Of a DNA stretch of 38,870 nucleotides, positions 21,401 to 27,400 are shown in pieces. The stretch covers positions 1-38,870 of the forward strand of contig JBDLIE010000026.1 of NCBI GenBank assembly GCA_039715015.1. Direction: 5' to 3'. Position 1 is the first letter of the stretch. Each line of letters begins with the position of its first letter. This DNA comes from Thermodesulfobacteriota bacterium (GTDB taxonomy: Bacteria; Desulfobacterota; Desulfobulbia; Desulfobulbales; SURF-16). Made by a program: the position numbers.

Positions 21401-24400
21401 GCTGTGTGCCGGGGGTTTATGTGGGGGTGACCATTCTTAAAAACGTTAATTCTGCTATGATTAAATGCAGTCTGGGTACTTTGATCATAGCTTACGGTCT
21501 CTCCTGTCTTTATGGGCGGCTAAGCCAGAAGTCGATCAACAAAGGCTGGGCCTATGCGGCTGGTTTTGCAACCGGCACCATTGGCGGCGCTTTTAGTGCC
21601 GGCGGTCCCCCCACTATCATCTATACCACCCTTACCGGCTGGAAGAAGGATGAGATTAAAGCGACGTTATCGTCCTTTTTTTTCTTTACATCTGCCCTGG
21701 CGGCGTCGGCCCATTATCTCACCGGCCTAATGACCCACCATGTTTTGACCCTCTTTGGGGTCGCAGCCTTGCCGGTACTTTCCGGGGTCTTCTTTGGTTC
21801 ACGTTTGTATAAAAAATTACAGAGCAACTCCTATCTGACAATCATCTATTATCTCCTCATTGTCCTGGGAAGTATGATGGTCGTCTCAGCTCTTAAGTGA
21901 TTGGATTATGTTTTTTTCTGGGCGCATGGCATGGGAAGCCAAGACTATAGAGGCCATGATCCGTCTCTATTGCCGGCGGCACCATGGGGGGGGCAGGGAG
22001 CTTTGCTCAGAGTGCCGGGAGTTGGAGGAGTATGCCCAAAAACGTCTGGCACTCTGTCCTTTTCAGGAGGGCAAGACCACCTGCGGCAACTGTCCGGTTC
22101 ATTGTTATAAGCCGGAGATGAGAAAAAGAGTTCGGACGGTGATGCGGGAGATAGGGCCGAAGATGATTTTTTATCACCCCATCATGGCATTAAGGCATTT
22201 GCTTGATGGTTTGCGGAAGACGCCTAAGAAGAAAAAATGAAGACCAACTGCACGATGTAGAGCAGGGAATTTTGAATTCCGAATGCAAAAAAAGAGGATG
22301 TTTTTGATCAGTCTTTACAGGTGCGCAACCCTGCGTGCCTGCCAATAATGCTTCAGCCAATGGGGATTGTCCAGGCGTGAGATCATCACCCCTTTGCTCT
22401 TTGAGGCATGGATGAATTTCTGGTTCTCCACATAGATAGCCACGTGTCTGGTTCCCATATTGACCTTGAAGAAAACAAGATCTCCTGGTTGGAGTTGGAC
22501 CTTGCTGACCGCCTCACCGGTATGGGCCAGCTGCGAGGTGGTGCGGGGCAGCCGGACATCGAAGAGCTCACGGAAGGAGCGATGGATAAAGCCGGAACAG
22601 TCAACGCCTTTTTTGCTCATGCCACCGTCGCTATGGGGCACGCCTTGCCAGTCTTTAAGTTGGCAGTAGAGCTTGTTAATGGTTTTATAGTGCTCTTCCT
22701 GGCTGAAATGGTAGCTGTTTGCCGGAGGGCTCTGGACAGTTTTTTTAGGGTCAGAACAGCTGCTCAGCATGAAAACAGCGCAGATAACAGCTATAAATCG
22801 GAGTGTACGTTTTATTTTTTTTCACATTTTTCAGCGCCGCAGGCCTCGCAGACGCCATGGCTGAGACACCAGGCCGGCCCGGTGGCTGTGTCTGTAATGA
22901 TGATTCCTTTTTCCTCTAATTTAAGGCGGGCAGCATCAGCCTTTTGCCAATCTTTACTTTTTCTCGCCTCTTCCCGCTCTTTGATCAATTCGTCAATTTC
23001 AGGATTCAGGGGACATGCCTCCAGAACCATGACGTTTATAATGGAGTTGATCTTTTCCAGGGGCTCCAGGATATATTTTTTCTGGTCGCCATCAAGTTGA
23101 CCGCTGGCCAGAATGGGATTGACCTTTTTGATGAAATCAAAGAGAGCGCCCAAGGCCTTGGAGATATTCATGTCATCATCCATGGCCTCAAAAAAGGTGT
23201 TTTCAAGGCTGGTAAGATAGGTGGCCACCTCGGGATGGGGATTACCCGGTGACAGGCAAAGGAGTTTTTTGCAGAATTCATCAAGGCGGCGCAGACTGGT
23301 GCGTGCTGCCGTGAGCTTGCTATAGCTGAATTCGATGGGCTTGCGATAATGATGACGCAGCAGGAAGAAGCGCACCTCCCTGTTGCTGAAACCCTCTGCC
23401 CAGACATCATTAAGGGTAATGATGTTGGAATTTTCAGCGCTCATCATTTTGCCATCCACCAAAAGGAGTTCGGAGTGGAGCCAGTGGTTGGCCAGGGGCT
23501 TGCCGGTCAGGGCCTGGGCAATGGCATTCTCATTTTCATGGTGAGGGAAGATGAGGTTGCGGCTCGCCGTGTGGATGTCCATGGTGTCGCCGAGATGGCT
23601 CAAGGTCATGGCCGCACATTCGATATGCCAGCCAGGCCGCATATTGCCGAAATCGGTCTGGAAAAAGATGCCCTGCTTGAGTTCGCCCAGGGTGGAGCGT
23701 TTCATCAACGTGAAATCAAGGGGGCTGTGCTTGTCATACTCCTCAAGGTCCACGGACTGGCCGCTTCTGATTTTATCGAGATCCACCTTGGAGAGTTTGC
23801 CGTAATCGCTGAATTTGGAGATGTCGAAATAGATGGACCCGTGCAACTCATAGGCAAAGCCCTTGTGGATAAGATCATGGGAGATCTCGATCATCCGCTC
23901 AACATAGGCCGAGGCCTTGGGCATGGTGATGGGCTGTTTCATGCCCAGGGCTTCCATGTCGGAAATAAAGGCCTCGATATGGGGGGTGGTGAAATCCGCC
24001 ACTGACTGTGATTTATTCTCGGCCCCGGCAATGGTGTTATCGTCAAGGTCGGTAAAGTTCATCAGAAAGTCGACCTTATAGCCCTTGGCGGCCAAGGTGC
24101 GATGGATCAGGTCGGCGACGATGAAACGCCTGCAGTGGCTGAGGTTAGTAGCTTCGTGGGCTGTGGGGCCGCAGGCGTAAAAGGTTACCTTTTTTGAAGA
24201 AATGGGCGTGAAGGGCAGTTTCTTTCGTTTAAGGGCATTGTAGAAGCGCAGCTGCGAAGCCTCATCCGCATCACCCTTGGTTGTTTTTTTGGTAAAGAGC
24301 TCAGTGGAGAGATATCTTTCCCCGCTGTCAGGGAAGATGACAATAAGCACGCCCTCTTCCATCTCTTCCGCCCTTTTAAGTGCCGCAGTCATGGCACAGC

Positions 24401-27400
24401 CGGAACTCATGCCCACAAAAAGACCCTCTTCCCTGGCCAGGGTGCGGGCCATTTCAAAGGACTCTTCATCCTCAATATTAATGATCTGGTATGGTTTATT
24501 TTTATCGAAGATCCCAGGCTTATAGGACTCTTTCATGTTTTTGAGGCCTTGGATTTTGTGCCCAAGGTAAGGTTCCACCGCAGTAATGCGAACATGGGAA
24601 TGCTTGGTGGCATAATAATGACTGAGGCCCATGACCGTACCACTGGTACCCAAGGTGGCAACAATATCGGTAACCTTGCCGCCGGTCTGTTCCCATATTT
24701 CGGGGCCGGTGGTCTCGACATGGGTCTGCCAGTTGGCATTATTGTTGAACTGGTCGGTGAGGAAATATTTGTCCGGATGTTCCCGGACCATGGCGTAGGC
24801 CTGCTCAATGGCGCCATCGGTGGAACGTTTAGCAGGGGTAAGAAGTATCTCAGCGCCGTAAGCACTCATGATTTTGCGGCGCTCAATGGAGGCGGATTCA
24901 GACATGACCAGCATGCAGCGGTAGCCCTTTACGGCACAGACCATGGCCAGGCCAATACCAGTGTTGCCGCTTGTGGCCTCAAGAACGATCTTGTCCTTGG
25001 TCAGCGCTCCGGACTTCTCGGCTGCCTCGATCATGAATTTGCCGATCCGGTCCTTGACTGAGCCACCAGGGTTCATGGACTCAAGTTTGGCAAAAATCTG
25101 GACCTTGGGGTTCTTGTTTAAACGGCGGATGGGAACGATGGGAGTGTTGCCGACAAGATCAAGGATGGATGCGTTCATAAAAATAACTGTAGATGTGAGT
25201 AAATGAGTAGACGCCAGGCTGATGGTCAGACTGGCAAGCTGCTGCGGTTAAAGGAATCCACCCAAAAGATACGGGCAGAAAAAAACTGCCTAGCACACTC
25301 TTAAAACGGAACATCTAAAACAGCAAATAAAAAGTGGGATATTGGACGTTTGGGCCTAGGCTGCGTCCGAATTTGCTAAGAACGATCCAAAAGCGCTAGG
25401 CAAAGGCGCCATCCCAGTCACTATTTTCTTTCATAAATTGCTCCATGGCCCCACCTATTTTTTTATCCTCGTTACGGATATGGTTGATAAGCCACTCAGT
25501 AAGGAAATCAATAAGTCCATAGGGGTGAATGGGCTTCCCCTCCATAAAATAATCTCCTTGGCGGCTTGATGTCACTGAGGATTCATGATGAGTATAGTAC
25601 ATGATAAATAAAAAAGGCAGGCTCCTCAAAAGAGGAACCTGCCTTTTTTATTATACGACCTGAATGATCTGGAGTTTAAGGATATAAAATCCTGGCGCTC
25701 TAGGAGATCTTCAGGGTTGCTTCAGAGTCGCGCTTTACAGCAACAACCATCTTGTAGAGCAGGGTGAGAATGAAGAAGCCTGTGGACCAGACTCCGGCAG
25801 TCACGGTGAGTTCTACAACGGTGGGGGTGTACTCTACAACATGCTCCATGGGCGTGGGTACGAAACCACCAAGGACAAGGCCCAGGCCTTTATCGATCCA
25901 GAAAGCAACGAAAATCAAGATACAGCTGGTGGCCAGCATGGCATCTGATTTCTGGCGTCTGGAAATAAAGAGCATGCAGATGCCAAGAATACCCATGGCA
26001 ACAGAGGCGCGCATAAAGGGCACCAGGTTGTTGTGCATAACCCCTGTGCTGTGGTCAACAAGACCAAAGAACAGGTAATCCAGGGTGTGCATATGGCCGG
26101 GGATGTTGGAGTAGTAGCCAACAAAGACCTCACAACCGAGGAGGAAGAAGTTAATGATAGCAGCGTAACCGATGATGGTCACCAGCTTGTTTTTGGCAGT
26201 CTCACCCACGTCAAAATTAGCAGTACGCTTCATGATCAGCGCAATAACCATCAGCAGGGCCGGTCCGGCCGCAAAGGCCGAGGCCAGAAAGCGGGGAGCC
26301 AGAACAGCGGTGAGCCAGAAATGACGTCCCGGCAGACCACAGTAAAGAAACGCCGTTACGGTGTGGATGGAGATGGCCCAGGGAATGGAGATATAGATAA
26401 ACGGCTTCACCCAGTTGGGATACTTGACGCCTCTATATTCAGACGAGAGGACCACGAAACCACACAGTACGTTTAAGAACAGGTAGCCGTTTAAGACGAT
26501 CATGTCATAAAACAGCATGGAGTTCGGGGTAGGGTGAAGGATAACGTTCATTGCCCGCATGGGCTGACCAAGATCGGCAATAATGAACATCAGACACATG
26601 GCCACGGCAGCAATCGCCATGAACTCACCCAAAAGAGTAATACGACCAAAAGACTTGTAGTCATGCAGGTAATATGGAAGCACCAGCATCAGACCACCGG
26701 CGGCAACACCGACCAGGAAGGTAAACTGGGAGATATAGATACCCCAGGTCACGTCCCGGCTCATACCGGTGGCGCCAAGTCCGTAGTTGAACTGGACCAG
26801 ATAGGCAACAGCGCCTGCGCCCATAACCATGAGCAACAGGGTGAGCCAGCCCCAGTACAGTCCGTTTCCTTTCAATACTTTATCAACCATGATGAATCAC
26901 CTCAGATGATGTAGAAAATTGACGGTTTTGTACCGAGAGAAGGCTTGCGCTGAATGGTGAACCGTTTCCTTAATGTCATGGAGACATCGGAATTCGGGTC
27001 ATTCAGGTCACCAAATACCATGGCGCCTTCAACTCCTTTATTGGCCTCTTCAACACAGAGCGGTTCTTTGCCCTGCTTGGTCCGCCATGCACAGAGCGAA
27101 CATTTTTCAACAACACCGCGCATCCTGGATGGGAAGAGGGGGTTGTATTTCTCAATGAAGGGCTTGCCATCTTCAGAACCACGGGGAGAACGCCAGTTAA
27201 AGGAGCGCGCTCCGTAGGGGCAGGCAGCCATACAGAAACGGCAGCCGATGCAGCGATGGAAATCCATCATGACTGCACCCTCTTTGTTTTTGAAGGTTGC
27301 CTTGGTGGGACAGGCCCGTACACAAGGTGGGCTGTCACAATGATTACACAGGGCCAGGATGTTCATGGAGCTGATCCGGTCATCCTTCTTGTAATGGCTG

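Follow-up and report, generated by a model that had tools for sequence, protein, structure and literature searches.

In the 38,870-nucleotide stretch of Thermodesulfobacteriota DNA analysed here (the window), one gene encodes a cysteine synthase fused to a cysteinyl-tRNA synthetase (CysRS)-like body that has kept its cysteine pocket and anticodon-binding domain but not the residues for handling ATP. Recognizing that this body has lost its ATP-handling residues and is nevertheless as conserved as a real CysRS, we surmise that its most probable role is that of a module binding cysteine/tRNA; accordingly, we favor, with a probability of roughly 0.55, a fusion acting as a cysteine synthase whose added domain binds cysteine/tRNA(Cys) and serves as a regulator or adaptor. 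The database name 'cysteine--tRNA ligase' is most likely wrong for this protein. As we envisage it, the N-terminal CysK/CysM module would convert activated serine and sulfide to cysteine and the CysRS-like body, making up the C-terminal two thirds of the protein, would no longer activate cysteine with ATP, with aminoacylation presumably lost; judging from residue conservation, cysteine would still be bound at the zinc site and tRNA(Cys) probably via the anticodon-binding domain, and binding of either or both may be used to tune, tether or report on cysteine synthesis. A literature search found no paper on a CysK-CysRS-like fusion family.

Module layout and predicted fold

Pfam analysis of the fusion protein revealed PALP (residues 6-283, E = 2.4e-71), tRNA-synt_1e (323-625, E = 2.1e-87), DALR_2 (662-710) and CysS_C (724-766), and the NCBIfam models TIGR01136 cysKM (358.2 bits vs. 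a cut-off of 344.15) and TIGR00435 cysS (399 bits vs. 340) were both matched above their cut-offs. Together with the PLP lysine (within SVKDR) and the TSGNTG loop, these matches bear out the initial annotation, in which an intact CysK/CysM module is joined to a full-length CysRS body (Table 1). The Cys-rich tail is limited to the closest relatives, with at least 4 tail cysteines in 5 of 61 aligned rows, and has a pLDDT below 50 over residues 774-788.

Table 1. Features of the fusion gene and its surroundings (positions in the window)
Feature	Position	Strand	Basis
Whole fusion gene, CysK/CysM module + CysRS-like body	22812..25178	-	788 codons plus stop; ORF list, translation
Cysteine synthase module (O-acetylserine sulfhydrylase, CysK/CysM type), residues 1-296	24291..25178	-	PALP, TIGR01136; PLP Lys K42, Asn loop TSGNTG 69-74
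Linker, residues 297-307	24258..24290	-	AF2 pLDDT below 50
CysRS-like Rossmann/CP catalytic body, residues 308-625	23304..24257	-	tRNA-synt_1e; 8qhp and 3tqo alignment; column analysis
HIGH position = NLSH, residues 345-348, followed by family-specific C349-R350-R351	24135..24146	-	Alignments
KMSKS position = MMSAE, residues 578-582	23433..23447	-	Alignments
Helical DALR domain + CysRS anticodon-binding domain, residues 626-770	22869..23303	-	DALR_2, CysS_C; conserved residues
Cys-rich C-terminal tail (CxxxxxCxxCxxxxC), residues 771-788	22815..22868	-	Alignment, pLDDT
dsrMKJOP, upstream neighbor	25700..30857	-	NCBIfam equivalogs, all over cut-off
Intrinsic terminator hairpin directly after dsrP	25607..25652	-	A-run before, U-run after; RNA fold
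Hemerythrin gene remnant, 49 codons, between dsrP and fusion	25396..25545	-	Homology to the hemerythrin of L008
tRNA-Arg(UCU)	18010..18086	-	ARAGORN; 4725 nt from the fusion

The AF2 model (mean pLDDT 85.6, pTM 0.75) predicts an intact fold, with Foldseek matching it to 8qhp at a TMt of 0.92 and the CysK half to its nearest structures, the CysM/OASS-B entries 2bhs/2jc3, at 0.93-0.94. The two halves may also pack together, as suggested by an ipSAE of 0.45 vs. 0.21 for the best control, with runs sharing at least 86% of contacts and partner pLDDT of at least 85; the tool's verdict is 'weak support'. Of 157 solved complexes, 116 reach its mark, as do 2 of 215 mismatches; at scores of 0.60 or under, however, only 18 of the 157 do so, along with both passing mismatches.

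Degeneration of the ATP site and retention of the pocket

Based on phmmer alignments to PDB entries 8qhp (2.3e-81) and 3tqo, NLSH in the fusion lies under HLGH/HIGH, NTIA (381-384) under KIIK and MMSAE under KMSKS, with Lys 577 one position ahead of the latter; HTASRNL (536-542) lies under HGGGxDL (TASRN for GGGxD), an additional ATP-site change that the initial annotation had not recorded. Kept are C336 (CGPT), W517-H518-x-E520-C521 and H546-H547-E-N-E550, comprising all the Zn/Cys ligands (C336, C521, H546 and E550).

We compared, column by column, 66 full-length Desulfobulbales fusions with 146 functional-looking CysRS. Among 71 columns at least 90% conserved in the latter, 52 were kept in the fusions, and the majority of the 19 altered or variable columns belonged to ATP-site motifs, as evidenced by: 1) a first HIGH position of N43/H11/T9/D3, with His surviving in a minority, and a HIGH Gly position of S25/A24/G14/D2/E1; 2) a first KIIK Lys replaced in all (N65/T1); 3) a GGxD motif with G changed to S/A and D reading D45/N16/E5; 4) a second KMSKS Lys of A25/R14/Q7/P7/K3/L2 plus others. 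C336, G337, T339, T376, W517, H518, E520, C521, H546, H547 and E550 were unchanged, as were R735, D748, R751, D763 and G767 of the anticodon domain, as in functional CysRS. The alignments and columns thus confirm the earlier observation that the Zn/Cys residues and anticodon domains are kept as HIGH becomes NLSH and KMSKS becomes MMSAE; its family counts hold approximately, in that HIGH and KMSKS are altered in most fusions, but the HIGH His is kept in 11 of 66 and the second KMSKS Lys in 3.

CGPT, W-H-x-E-C and HHEN were retained in 80 of 80 Desulfobacterota rows, and the PLP Lys with TSGNTG in 76, the remaining 4 being cut by a contig end. Fusions of other Desulfobacterota are more extreme, with DLVQ for HIGH, TSGVALA for GGGxD and no recognizable KMSKS, and a minority of the fusion family retains HLAH/HLGH or KMSR(S). 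Adjoining the HIGH position, C349 occurs in 98% of the 66 Desulfobulbales fusions and all 11 fusions from other lineages vs. 0 of 146 functional CysRS, and R351 in 100% of fusions where functional CysRS have S/T/A. Some ArgRS compensate for the KMSKS Lys with a Lys near HIGH, and R351, a new Arg shared across the fusion family, might make up for the missing KMSKS Lys in a similar way. That the degenerate body still passes the cysS equivalog cut-off counts against a pseudo-synthetase. In addition, a study on E. coli CysRS (PMC5660078) reports that K73A, K76A, K266A, K269A and the double mutants, assayed in a cell-free system, retained 'intact protein synthesis potential'; loss of the KIIK/KMSKS lysines alone is therefore no proof of a dead synthetase.

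Co-existing enzymes, constraint and ancestry

The fusion family is large: sampling recovered it in 108 of 121 genomes from the order and in 122 of 301 from the phylum. Over 190 pairs from 20 genomes, the CysRS-like part was 65.6% identical vs. 63.9% for the canonical CysRS in the same genomes (r = 0.89), and the CysK part 74.5%. The CysRS-like half is hence under constraint as strong as that on the housekeeping CysRS, reflecting strong purifying selection, and is no decaying relic.

As previously noted, the genome has a canonical CysRS (HLGH, KIIK, KMSKS) elsewhere, found at G000:C3:70-1035, where a contig end truncates it; it scores 481 bits, with just 323 model positions covered. A separate canonical CysRS accompanies the fusion in 98 of the 108 fusion-bearing genomes of the order, including 7 of 7 closed ones (3 contigs or fewer), and in 5 of 5 other Desulfobacterota genomes (canonical copy 556-577 bits, fused copy 351-453 bits), rendering the fusion redundant as a synthetase. 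Neither canonical CysRS nor SepRS was found in 10 of the 108 (G070, G104, G107, G021, G032, G034, G044, G058, G066 and G092). These 10 are all fragmented MAGs, with completeness of 88-97% and 10-520 contigs (G104, though, has only 10), and canonical cysS is frequently situated at a contig edge. Judged by score class among the matches listed, 11 genomes of the order, including the closed G014 and G099, had just one CysK-type match, and it fell in the class of the fusions, suggesting that these genomes depend on the CysK half.

In the CysRS tree, the fusions fall in a clade (starred) of motif-degenerate CysRS-like proteins inside HIGN/KTIx-type CysRS, distant from the order's own HLGH/KIIK CysRS. 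The fused P0132 type retains HIGN, KTIK, HTGGIDL and KMSKS, and in a Nanobdellota MAG a fused 804-aa ORF (HVGN, TGGIDL, KMSKS) is the sole CysRS match, scoring 512 bits for cysS vs. 351-453 bits for fused copies that co-exist with a canonical one. No other CysRS was found in that DPANN archaeon beside this intact-motif relative, so the ancestor was likely a bifunctional CysK-CysRS, with the Desulfobacterota copy turned pseudo-synthetase; ATP chemistry would have been lost in Desulfobacterota, which have the second, canonical CysRS.

The DPANN relative could also argue that the fusion is still an active bifunctional enzyme, charging tRNA(Cys) via variant motifs as a second, perhaps condition-specific, CysRS, a view in line with the TIGR00435 match, the retained pocket, anticodon domain and fold, conservation matching that of canonical CysRS, the 10 MAGs, the E. 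coli mutants and possible compensation by R351. We consider this unlikely, in that four separate ATP-site elements are hit together and vary among orthologues with no new motif settled, the HIGH Gly is even D or E, whole lineages read DLVQ and TSGVALA without KMSKS, every closed genome examined has a canonical CysRS, and the fused cysS score drops from 512 to 351-453 bits in the presence of a canonical copy. These findings, together with the fixed pocket and the constraint, support the initial view that the fusion is not a housekeeping synthetase.

Also improbable is a new, ATP-independent catalytic site, comprising the Zn-cysteine site and Cys349-Arg350-Arg351 in the former ATP place, which would act on cysteine made by the neighboring module, possibly forming or resolving cysteine persulfide or S-sulfocysteine. 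The near-exclusive C349, the invariant R351 and the strong constraint would fit such a role, as would the likeness of the CysK half to CysM/OASS-B, an isozyme able to use thiosulfate. A second activity of CysRS as cysteine persulfide synthase, reported in PMC5660078, also speaks for it, but the PLP-holding lysines named there, of KIIK and KMSK, are exactly those lost in the fusion. Moreover, in one cluster representative (P0128) C349 and the Zn ligand Cys (WHIKS) are both missing, and no sulfur-transfer partner is consistently encoded near the fusion loci. The earlier suggestion of tRNA-dependent sulfur transfer is conceivable but not supported.

P0128 keeps the fold and anticodon domain, so the cysteine pocket is dispensable in some members; with the fusion of closed genome G014 matching residues 4-597 only, pocket and C-terminal domain can evidently be lost in some lineages. 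Such versions would suit a purely structural appendage for CysK oligomerization, stability or localization, lacking any ligand-dependent role. This we deem quite improbable, given that a mere scaffold would not need the exact ligand-binding residues, which are retained in all 80 Desulfobacterota rows along with fixed anticodon-domain residues.

Genomic neighborhood and likeness to known systems

The initial annotation placed the gene directly downstream of dsrMKJOP. These genes (DsrM 456.8, DsrK 700.9, DsrJ 140.4, DsrO 270 and DsrP 454.6 bits) do lie upstream on the same strand, but across a 521-nt spacer harboring a strong terminator (-34.2 kcal/mol, z = -8.69, 0 of 200 shuffles equally stable) and a hemerythrin remnant, and dsrMKJOP is probably on a separate transcript. 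Over its last 48 residues, the 143-aa hemerythrin preceding the fusion in the closest relative, L008 (92% identity), shares 69% identity with the remnant (E 3e-24); the L008 fusion has genes for hemerythrin, HD-GYP, CheR and CheW on its upstream side.

Of 67 loci with 1500 nt or more of sequence upstream of the fusion, 46 have dsrP on that side and on the same strand, 35 of these across a gap no wider than 378 nt. Within the order, dsrP is found within 600 nt of the fusion in 44 of 108 genomes and within 5 kb in 13 more (57 of 108). The adjacency is confined to certain families, with no dsrP within 5 kb in f5, f14 and f15, in whose closed genomes the two are hundreds of kb apart, and was not seen in the other Desulfobacterota fusion lineages examined. 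The most widely conserved downstream neighbor in the order, tRNA-Arg(UCU), is conserved at least as much as dsrP, which points to inherited synteny. Despite the shared loci, the Dsr link is lineage-specific synteny only, and these patterns, with the terminator and the L008 upstream genes, make it very unlikely that, as the boldest initial reading had it, the fusion is a Dsr-system component capturing sulfide from DsrMKJOP/DsrC for cysteine synthesis under co-regulation with dsrMKJOP.

For the preferred cysteine synthase with a cysteine/tRNA(Cys)-binding domain, the proposed role of the CysRS-like body on CysK would resemble that of HisZ, which acts on HisG, and its conservation pattern would fit a HisZ-like pseudo-synthetase or one like the HisRS-like domain of GCN2.

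The cysteine synthase module and the CysRS-like body

The fusion carries PALP (residues 6-283), tRNA-synt_1e (323-625), DALR_2 (662-710) and CysS_C (724-766) domains, the last two both above their Pfam cut-offs, so that the C-terminal anticodon-binding domain of CysRS is present. Its N-terminal 296 residues make up a complete PLP fold-type II cysteine synthase that has both the PLP Lys (K42) and the Asn loop (TSGNTG). Among the NCBIfam models, the fusion passes the cysS equivalog TIGR00435 (399 bits, curated cut-off 340) and the cysKM subfamily model TIGR01136 (358.2 bits, cut-off 344.15), and falls short of the CysK equivalog (322.5 vs. 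350.95), the CysM equivalog (337.5 vs. 394.2) or the MshC model TIGR03447 (200.1 vs. 485.1). The AlphaFold2 model, computed from an input alignment of 61 rows, has a mean pLDDT of 85.6 and a pTM of 0.75, with low confidence only in the linker (297-307), two loops and the last 15 residues. In Foldseek, the predicted C-terminal body resembles CysRS 8qhp across its whole length (TMt 0.92, rmsd 1.9) while the predicted N-terminal part resembles CysK/CysM, with the CysM entries 2bhs and 2jc3 as best matches (TMt 0.93-0.94). The Cys-rich tail, which only the window fusion and its nearest relatives have (5 of the 61 rows aligned), may form a small metal-binding knuckle in a segment modeled with low confidence.

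Features of the fusion and its surroundings, and motifs of related fused cluster representatives
Feature	Window position	Strand	Residues	Remarks
Fusion ORF	22812-25178	minus		788 codons; from ORF list and translation
Cys-rich tail CLSHGVCEACGAEKC	22815-22868	minus	771-788	after the anticodon domain
HIGH/HLGH position			345-348	reads NLSH
KIIK position			381-384	reads NTIA
HGGGxDL position			536-542	reads HTASRNL
KMSKS position			578-582	reads MMSAE
Hemerythrin remnant	25396-25545	minus		49 codons; between dsrP and fusion
RsbRD_N-domain gene	30864-31433	minus		189 aa; directly upstream of dsrM
tRNA-Arg(UCU) gene	18010-18086	minus		ARAGORN; 4725 nt from fusion
P0122				fused; HLGN / KTIQ / KMSRS
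P0128				fused; QLGE; Zn Cys lost (WHIKS)
P0132				PALP+CysRS fusion; intact HIGN, KTIK, HTGGIDL, KMSKS

Placement of the motifs relied on phmmer alignments to 8qhp (2.3e-81) and 3tqo (8e-81) and on an alignment with the canonical CysRS of the same genome. These alignments bear out the initial annotation, which had described an intact CysK joined to a CysRS-like body with degenerate HIGH and KMSKS; this anatomy, motif losses included, is refined in that the gene lies on the minus strand and GGGxD is a fourth lost ATP-site element. Since both the HIGH signature (H-x-G-H/N) and the KMSKS loop with its second, catalytic Lys were tested for and are absent, we regard the fusion not as a working member of the CysRS family, but as a pseudo-synthetase paralogue. 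The Zn/cysteine pocket is retained in sequence, with C336 (CGPT), T376, W517-H518-x-E520-C521 and H546-H547-E-N-E550 all in place; we take C336, T376, W517, C521, H546 and E550 to be the equivalents of E. coli CysRS C28, T68, W205, C209, H234 and E238. In the anticodon domain, conservation matches that of functional CysRS at R735, D748, R751, D763 and G767. Searching with the fusion yielded 79 related loci (52-92% identity), and CGPT, W-H-x-E-C and HHEN are found in 80 of 80 aligned rows; the PLP Lys and TSGNTG are found in 76 of the 80, i.e., in all rows that cover them, the other four being truncated.

We compared 66 full-length Desulfobulbales fusions, column by column, with 146 functional-looking CysRS (P0132, 30 canonical enzymes of the order and 115 cluster representatives that have both H-x-G-H/N and KMSKS). 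Of the 71 columns conserved at 90% or more in the functional-looking set, 52 are kept in the fusions and 19 are changed or variable, the majority of these within ATP-site elements: H345 (N43/H11/T9/D3), G347 (S25/A24/G14/D2/E1), K381 as the first KIIK Lys (N65/T1), G538 (S55/A11), G539 (G39/S24 and others), D541 (D45/N16/E5), K578 (K58/M8), K581 as the second KMSKS Lys (A25/R14/Q7/P7/K3/L2) and S582 (E/D); the remaining ones belong to the CP region (W492, W506, G513, R475). That these residues vary among orthologues, with no new fixed motif in their place, indicates that the constraint on the ATP site has been lost. Fusions of other Desulfobacterota lineages are more extreme, with DLVQ for HIGH, TSGVALA for GGGxD and an unrecognisable KMSKS.

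The separate CysRS and the role of the fused body

In the fusion's own genome (G000, 100 contigs), the canonical CysRS that the initial annotation had placed elsewhere, cut by a contig end, was found at C3:70-1035, with HLGH, KIIK and KMSKS and a score of 481 bits although only 323 model positions are covered; the stand-alone CysK of this genome is likewise interrupted by contig ends. Within the order sample, the fusion is present in 108 of 121 genomes, and CysS-model matches fall into a canonical class (510-583 bits, ~490-520 aa) and a fused class (390-436 bits, ~780-850 aa). Besides G000, a separate CysRS accompanies the fusion across the sample (98/108), including all seven fusion-bearing genomes with three or fewer contigs (G014, G062, G076, G088, G099, G106, G111), so that the fusion is not the sole, essential copy of CysRS in these cells. 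In G000 and in many MAGs of the order (e.g., G010, G054, G061, G065, G073, G093, G105, G115), canonical cysS abuts a contig end or sits no more than a few hundred bases from one.

No separate CysRS was found in ten of the 108 fusion-bearing genomes (G070, G104, G107, G021, G032, G034, G044, G058, G066, G092). All ten are MAGs with 10-520 contigs and 88-97% completeness, and their fusions are equally degenerate (NLSM / KMSSD in G104). We read them as assembly gaps because canonical cysS is often found at contig edges in MAGs; the cysS locus is assembly-fragile, which probably explains the MAGs with no canonical match. The best counter-example to this reading is G104, with only 10 contigs. An indirect Cys-tRNA pathway for such genomes was considered and rejected, as no SepRS scored above cut-off in any of the five genomes checked (three of the ten MAGs and two further genomes), with only PheRS-like matches of 20-23 bits.

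With respect to the CysK half, 11 of the 121 genomes, closed G014 and G099 among them, have a single CysK-type match among the matches listed, a count inferred from score class, and as this match scores in the fused class, the fused CysK half is probably the working cysteine synthase in those 11 genomes. A SAT-like (CysE-type) ORF scored 161 bits, under the cut-off of 210.65. Two fusions are altered: that of G014 (1 contig; C1:2736760-2738535) matches residues 4-597 only, in a 704-aa frame, and that of G075 (6 contigs; C1:1863895-1865911) is split into two pieces and has an in-frame TGA. Both are naturally occurring variants, by truncation or decay.

We favor, with a probability of roughly 0.55, the reading that the fusion is a cysteine synthase carrying a pseudo-CysRS that would bind cysteine at its Zn site, and probably tRNA(Cys) at its anticodon domain, and would thereby regulate, tether or report on cysteine synthesis. 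Several points speak against a pseudo-CysRS: 1) the cysS profile is still passed; 2) ten MAGs have no other CysRS that we could find; 3) PMC5660078 reports that E. coli CysRS with Lys->Ala changes in KIIK/KMSK kept cell-free translation activity; 4) R351, new in the fusions, might make up for the missing Lys. Weighing these against the absent signatures and the canonical copy in most genomes, we consider it unlikely that the fusion is still an active synthetase.

An alternative that we find improbable is that the pocket once used for ATP has turned into a new catalytic site, making the fusion an ATP-independent two-step sulfur enzyme. The invariant Cys349-Arg350-Arg351, the remodeled CP loop and the retained Zn-cysteine site would together form this site; cysteine or S-sulfocysteine would come from the CysM-like half, and the pseudo-CysRS half, perhaps docked on tRNA(Cys), would process the product, with cysteine persulfide or S-sulfocysteine, e.g., being formed or consumed. 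Fifty columns are fixed across the fusions yet different in functional CysRS; C349 and R351, which directly follow the HIGH position, are both found in 11 of 11 other-lineage fusions, with C349 in 0 of 146 functional CysRS, and the fifty columns also take in a conserved inserted segment of the CP domain (R494-S-T-L-x-E-L-K-x-G) and several new basic residues. If true, this alternative would mean a previously unknown reaction in sulfur-cycling Desulfobacterota.

The CysRS-like body might instead be a mere scaffold, which seems to us quite improbable.

For the favored reading, when the two halves were predicted as separate chains, ipSAE was 0.45 vs. 0.21 for the best control, graded 'weak support' by a mark that 116 of 157 solved complexes and 2 of 215 mismatches pass, with only 18 of the 157 solved complexes, together with both passing mismatches, at scores of 0.60 or lower; the runs shared at least 86% of contacts, with a partner pLDDT of at least 85. 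Together with the pTM of 0.75, this prediction hints that the halves meet at a defined interface; the predicted packing is the one hint that the body might control its partner enzyme in a ligand- or tRNA-dependent way. Over 190 pairs from 20 genomes, identity was 65.6% in the CysRS-like part and 63.9% in the canonical CysRS of the same genomes (r = 0.89), and 74.5% in the fused CysK part. Judging from these identities, the CysRS-like domain is not decaying, but is under purifying selection with a constraint like that on canonical CysRS. The pattern expected of a pseudo-synthetase can thus be read from the alignments, namely a synthetase fold with lost catalytic signatures, apparently retained ligand- and tRNA-binding parts and purifying selection.

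The neighbourhood and the Dsr genes

The genes dsrM, K, J, O and P lie upstream of the fusion on the same strand (25700-30857), all five above their NCBIfam equivalog cut-offs. The RsbRD_N gene holds the same place in most related loci with dsrMKJOP and is an undescribed conserved companion in the order. The spacer between dsrP and the fusion is 521 nt long; at its start, between an A-run and a U-run, is a perfect hairpin, a terminator with a folding energy of -34.2 kcal/mol (z = -8.69, 0 of 200 shuffles equally stable). The hemerythrin remnant is a C-terminal end, 69% identical to the end of an intact 143-aa hemerythrin that precedes the fusion in L008, the closest relative. No leader RNA (T-box, riboswitch) was found in the spacer or around the gene with Rfam at E up to 1 over 21000-32000, where only sub-threshold chance matches on the terminator hairpin turned up; in nine related loci searched at gathering threshold, only tRNAs and a distant cobalamin riboswitch were found.

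Among the 67 related loci whose upstream sequence spans 1500 nt or more, 46 have dsrP upstream on the same strand, with a gap of 378 nt or less in 35. Across the 108 fusion-bearing genomes of the order, dsrP is within 600 nt of the fusion in 44 and within 5 kb in 13 more, far off on the same contig in nine and on another contig in 39; for three genomes, DsrP is absent among the matches listed. This adjacency follows phylogeny, being found in families f1-f4, f6-f10 and f13, and in none of the genomes of f5, f14 and f15, closed ones included; nor was it seen in the more distant fusion-bearing lineages. Upstream of the L008 fusion (92% identity), hemerythrin, HD-GYP, CheR and CheW stand in place of dsr. 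Among loci without dsr, no shared partner gene emerged, their neighbors being lineage-dependent (AIR-synthase-like, DciA, RR-GGDEF and NUDIX in one group; SurE, ClpB, nitroreductase and DUF169 in another; an epimerase and an ABC transporter in a third).

Of the 60 related loci scanned (within L009-L078), 39 have tRNA-Arg(UCU) downstream of the fusion and on its strand, in 19 cases within 250 nt, and many of the 21 loci without it have short downstream sequence. It is kept where dsrMKJOP is not adjacent (e.g., L044, L049, L051, L060) and is at least as conserved a neighbor of the fusion as dsrP. In the window, the fusion is followed by NlpC/P60, then TauE and YgbA (opposite strand), a hybrid histidine kinase and only then this tRNA gene, which implies an insertion in the window's lineage. 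As a candidate special substrate, this tRNA-Arg was rejected, being an ordinary tRNA with A73; the single tRNA-Cys(GCA) of the genome, with U73, is likewise ordinary. G000 has a second DsrP-like (NrfD family) gene (C39:3689-4831), which scores 392 bits with the DsrP model; many genomes of the order have such a gene.

As the adjacency tracks phylogeny and tRNA-Arg(UCU) is at least as conserved, we treat both neighbors as inherited synteny. With a terminator after dsrP and only 57 of 108 genomes having dsrP within 5 kb, we see neither a sign of co-transcription nor universal linkage with dsrMKJOP. Given the terminator, the lineage-limited adjacency and the L008 locus, the coupling to Dsr put forward in the initial annotation is unsupported beyond the trivial fact that the hosts live in sulfide, and a Dsr-coupled module is very unlikely despite the five upstream genes.

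Origin of the fusion and likeness to known systems

Of 301 genomes sampled across the phylum, 122 have the fusion, spread over 79 of 199 genera and with identities as low as 41%, and it is carried by hundreds of Desulfobacterota species, including sulfate reducers, sulfur disproportionators and cable bacteria; with cultured carriers such as Desulfocarbo indianensis, its role is directly testable. The pipeline label 'cysteine--tRNA ligase' is probably wrong and can mask the true cysS/cysK status of genomes. Our literature search, supplements aside, retrieved no description of a CysK-CysRS fusion or a motif-degenerate CysRS paralogue, and neither is mentioned in the portions of PMC8762117 and PMC2922099 available to us.

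A whole-library search with the CysRS-like part returned only a few fused cluster representatives (P0122, P0128, P0132). In the CysRS tree (79 rows, IQ-TREE quick, LG+G4), the canonical CysRS of the order falls within a HIGH/KIIK clade, while every degenerate fusion belongs to a starred (98) clade of CysRS-like proteins with degenerate motifs, nested in a HIGN/KTIx clade that also contains P0132. Unfused degenerate CysRS-like proteins (P0124, P0125, P0130, P0138, P0086) group with the fused family, with HIGL / KMSRS motifs and, in one type, HNENE for HHENE; they may be stand-alone pseudo-CysRS, some possibly mis-called fusion starts. A search for shorter, unfused relatives returned mostly contig-end fragments and mis-called fusion starts. 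Another representative, P0171, joins a CysE-type serine acetyltransferase-like hexapeptide domain to a CysRS with intact HIGH, KIIK and KMSKS, implying that cysteine-biosynthesis enzymes have been fused to CysRS more than once.

Among the loci related to P0132, a Nanobdellota MAG (L157) has a fused 804-aa ORF with HVGN, TGGIDL and KMSKS (512 bits) as the sole CysRS match in its genome, and in four small genomes (labelled Woesearchaeota, Moranbacteria, Bdellovibrionales and Bathyarchaeia) a single CysRS directly adjoins cysK. Five of five genomes tested from Desulfobacterota outside the order have a canonical CysRS (556-577 bits) along with the fused copy (351-453 bits). The simplest history is that of a bifunctional CysK-CysRS ancestor turned pseudo-synthetase in Desulfobacterota, where the synthetase role would have become redundant and the ATP chemistry been lost, with the CysRS-like half then kept by strong selection for another role. 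This would offer a natural series from bifunctional enzyme to pseudo-enzyme, i.e., intact (sole CysRS in a DPANN archaeon), intermediate (KMSRS/HLGN) and degenerate (NLSH/MMSAE and DLVQ), with the degenerate half throughout under a constraint equal to that on an essential synthetase.

With canonical CysS (TIGR00435, PF01406; 1LI5, 1U0B, 8QHP), the fusion shares the fold, the Zn/cysteine ligands and the DALR and anticodon-binding domains, but its HIGH, KIIK, GGGxD and KMSKS are degenerate and orthologue-variable, it sits behind a CysK module, and it has the family-specific C349/R351 and remodeled CP segment. Like CysK/CysM (TIGR01136; 2Q3B, 2BHS, 2JC3), it has the PLP Lys, Asn loop and complete fold in its N-terminus, but it adds a 490-residue C-terminal pseudo-synthetase and reaches the cysKM subfamily model only. 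The intact-motif CysK-CysRS (P0132 type; L157), presumably a true bifunctional enzyme, has the same domain order and HIGN/KTIx-type CysRS branch, but keeps HIGN/HVGN, HTGGIDL and KMSKS and, in L157, is the only CysRS match of its genome.

HisZ, a HisRS paralogue that is the regulatory subunit of ATP phosphoribosyltransferase, and the HisRS-like domain of GCN2 have both lost aminoacylation chemistry; each binds its amino acid or the uncharged tRNA and in this way serves that amino acid's biosynthesis or regulation. The likeness is one of working without homology, and any regulatory role of the fusion is putative; HisZ and GCN2 are class II and act as separate subunits or kinase domains, whereas the fusion is class I and joined to the last biosynthetic enzyme. 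Should cysteine or tRNA(Cys) sensing prove true, HisZ/GCN2-type control would gain its first class I counterpart, one in which the control domain is attached directly to the enzyme that completes the pathway to the same amino acid.

MshC, the cysteine:GlcN-Ins ligase of mycothiol synthesis, is a CysRS paralogue with a non-translational role and a CysRS-derived fold that Foldseek matches to the predicted body (8hfn, 3c8z; TMt 0.82-0.84); it is not known to have the CysRS C-terminal anticodon domain, which the fusion keeps. Cysteine adenylation is still done by MshC (Biol Direct 2010, PMC2922099). Finally, CysRS/CARS is described by Akaike et al. 2017 (PMC5660078) as an ATP- and tRNA-independent, PLP-linked cysteine persulfide synthase, whose PLP lysines K73, K76, K266 and K269, as named there, correspond to N381, A384, M578 and A581 in the fusion. 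PLP-linked sulfur chemistry is thus associated with CysRS in both systems, and in the fusion the PLP enzyme is physically joined to the CysRS-like body.
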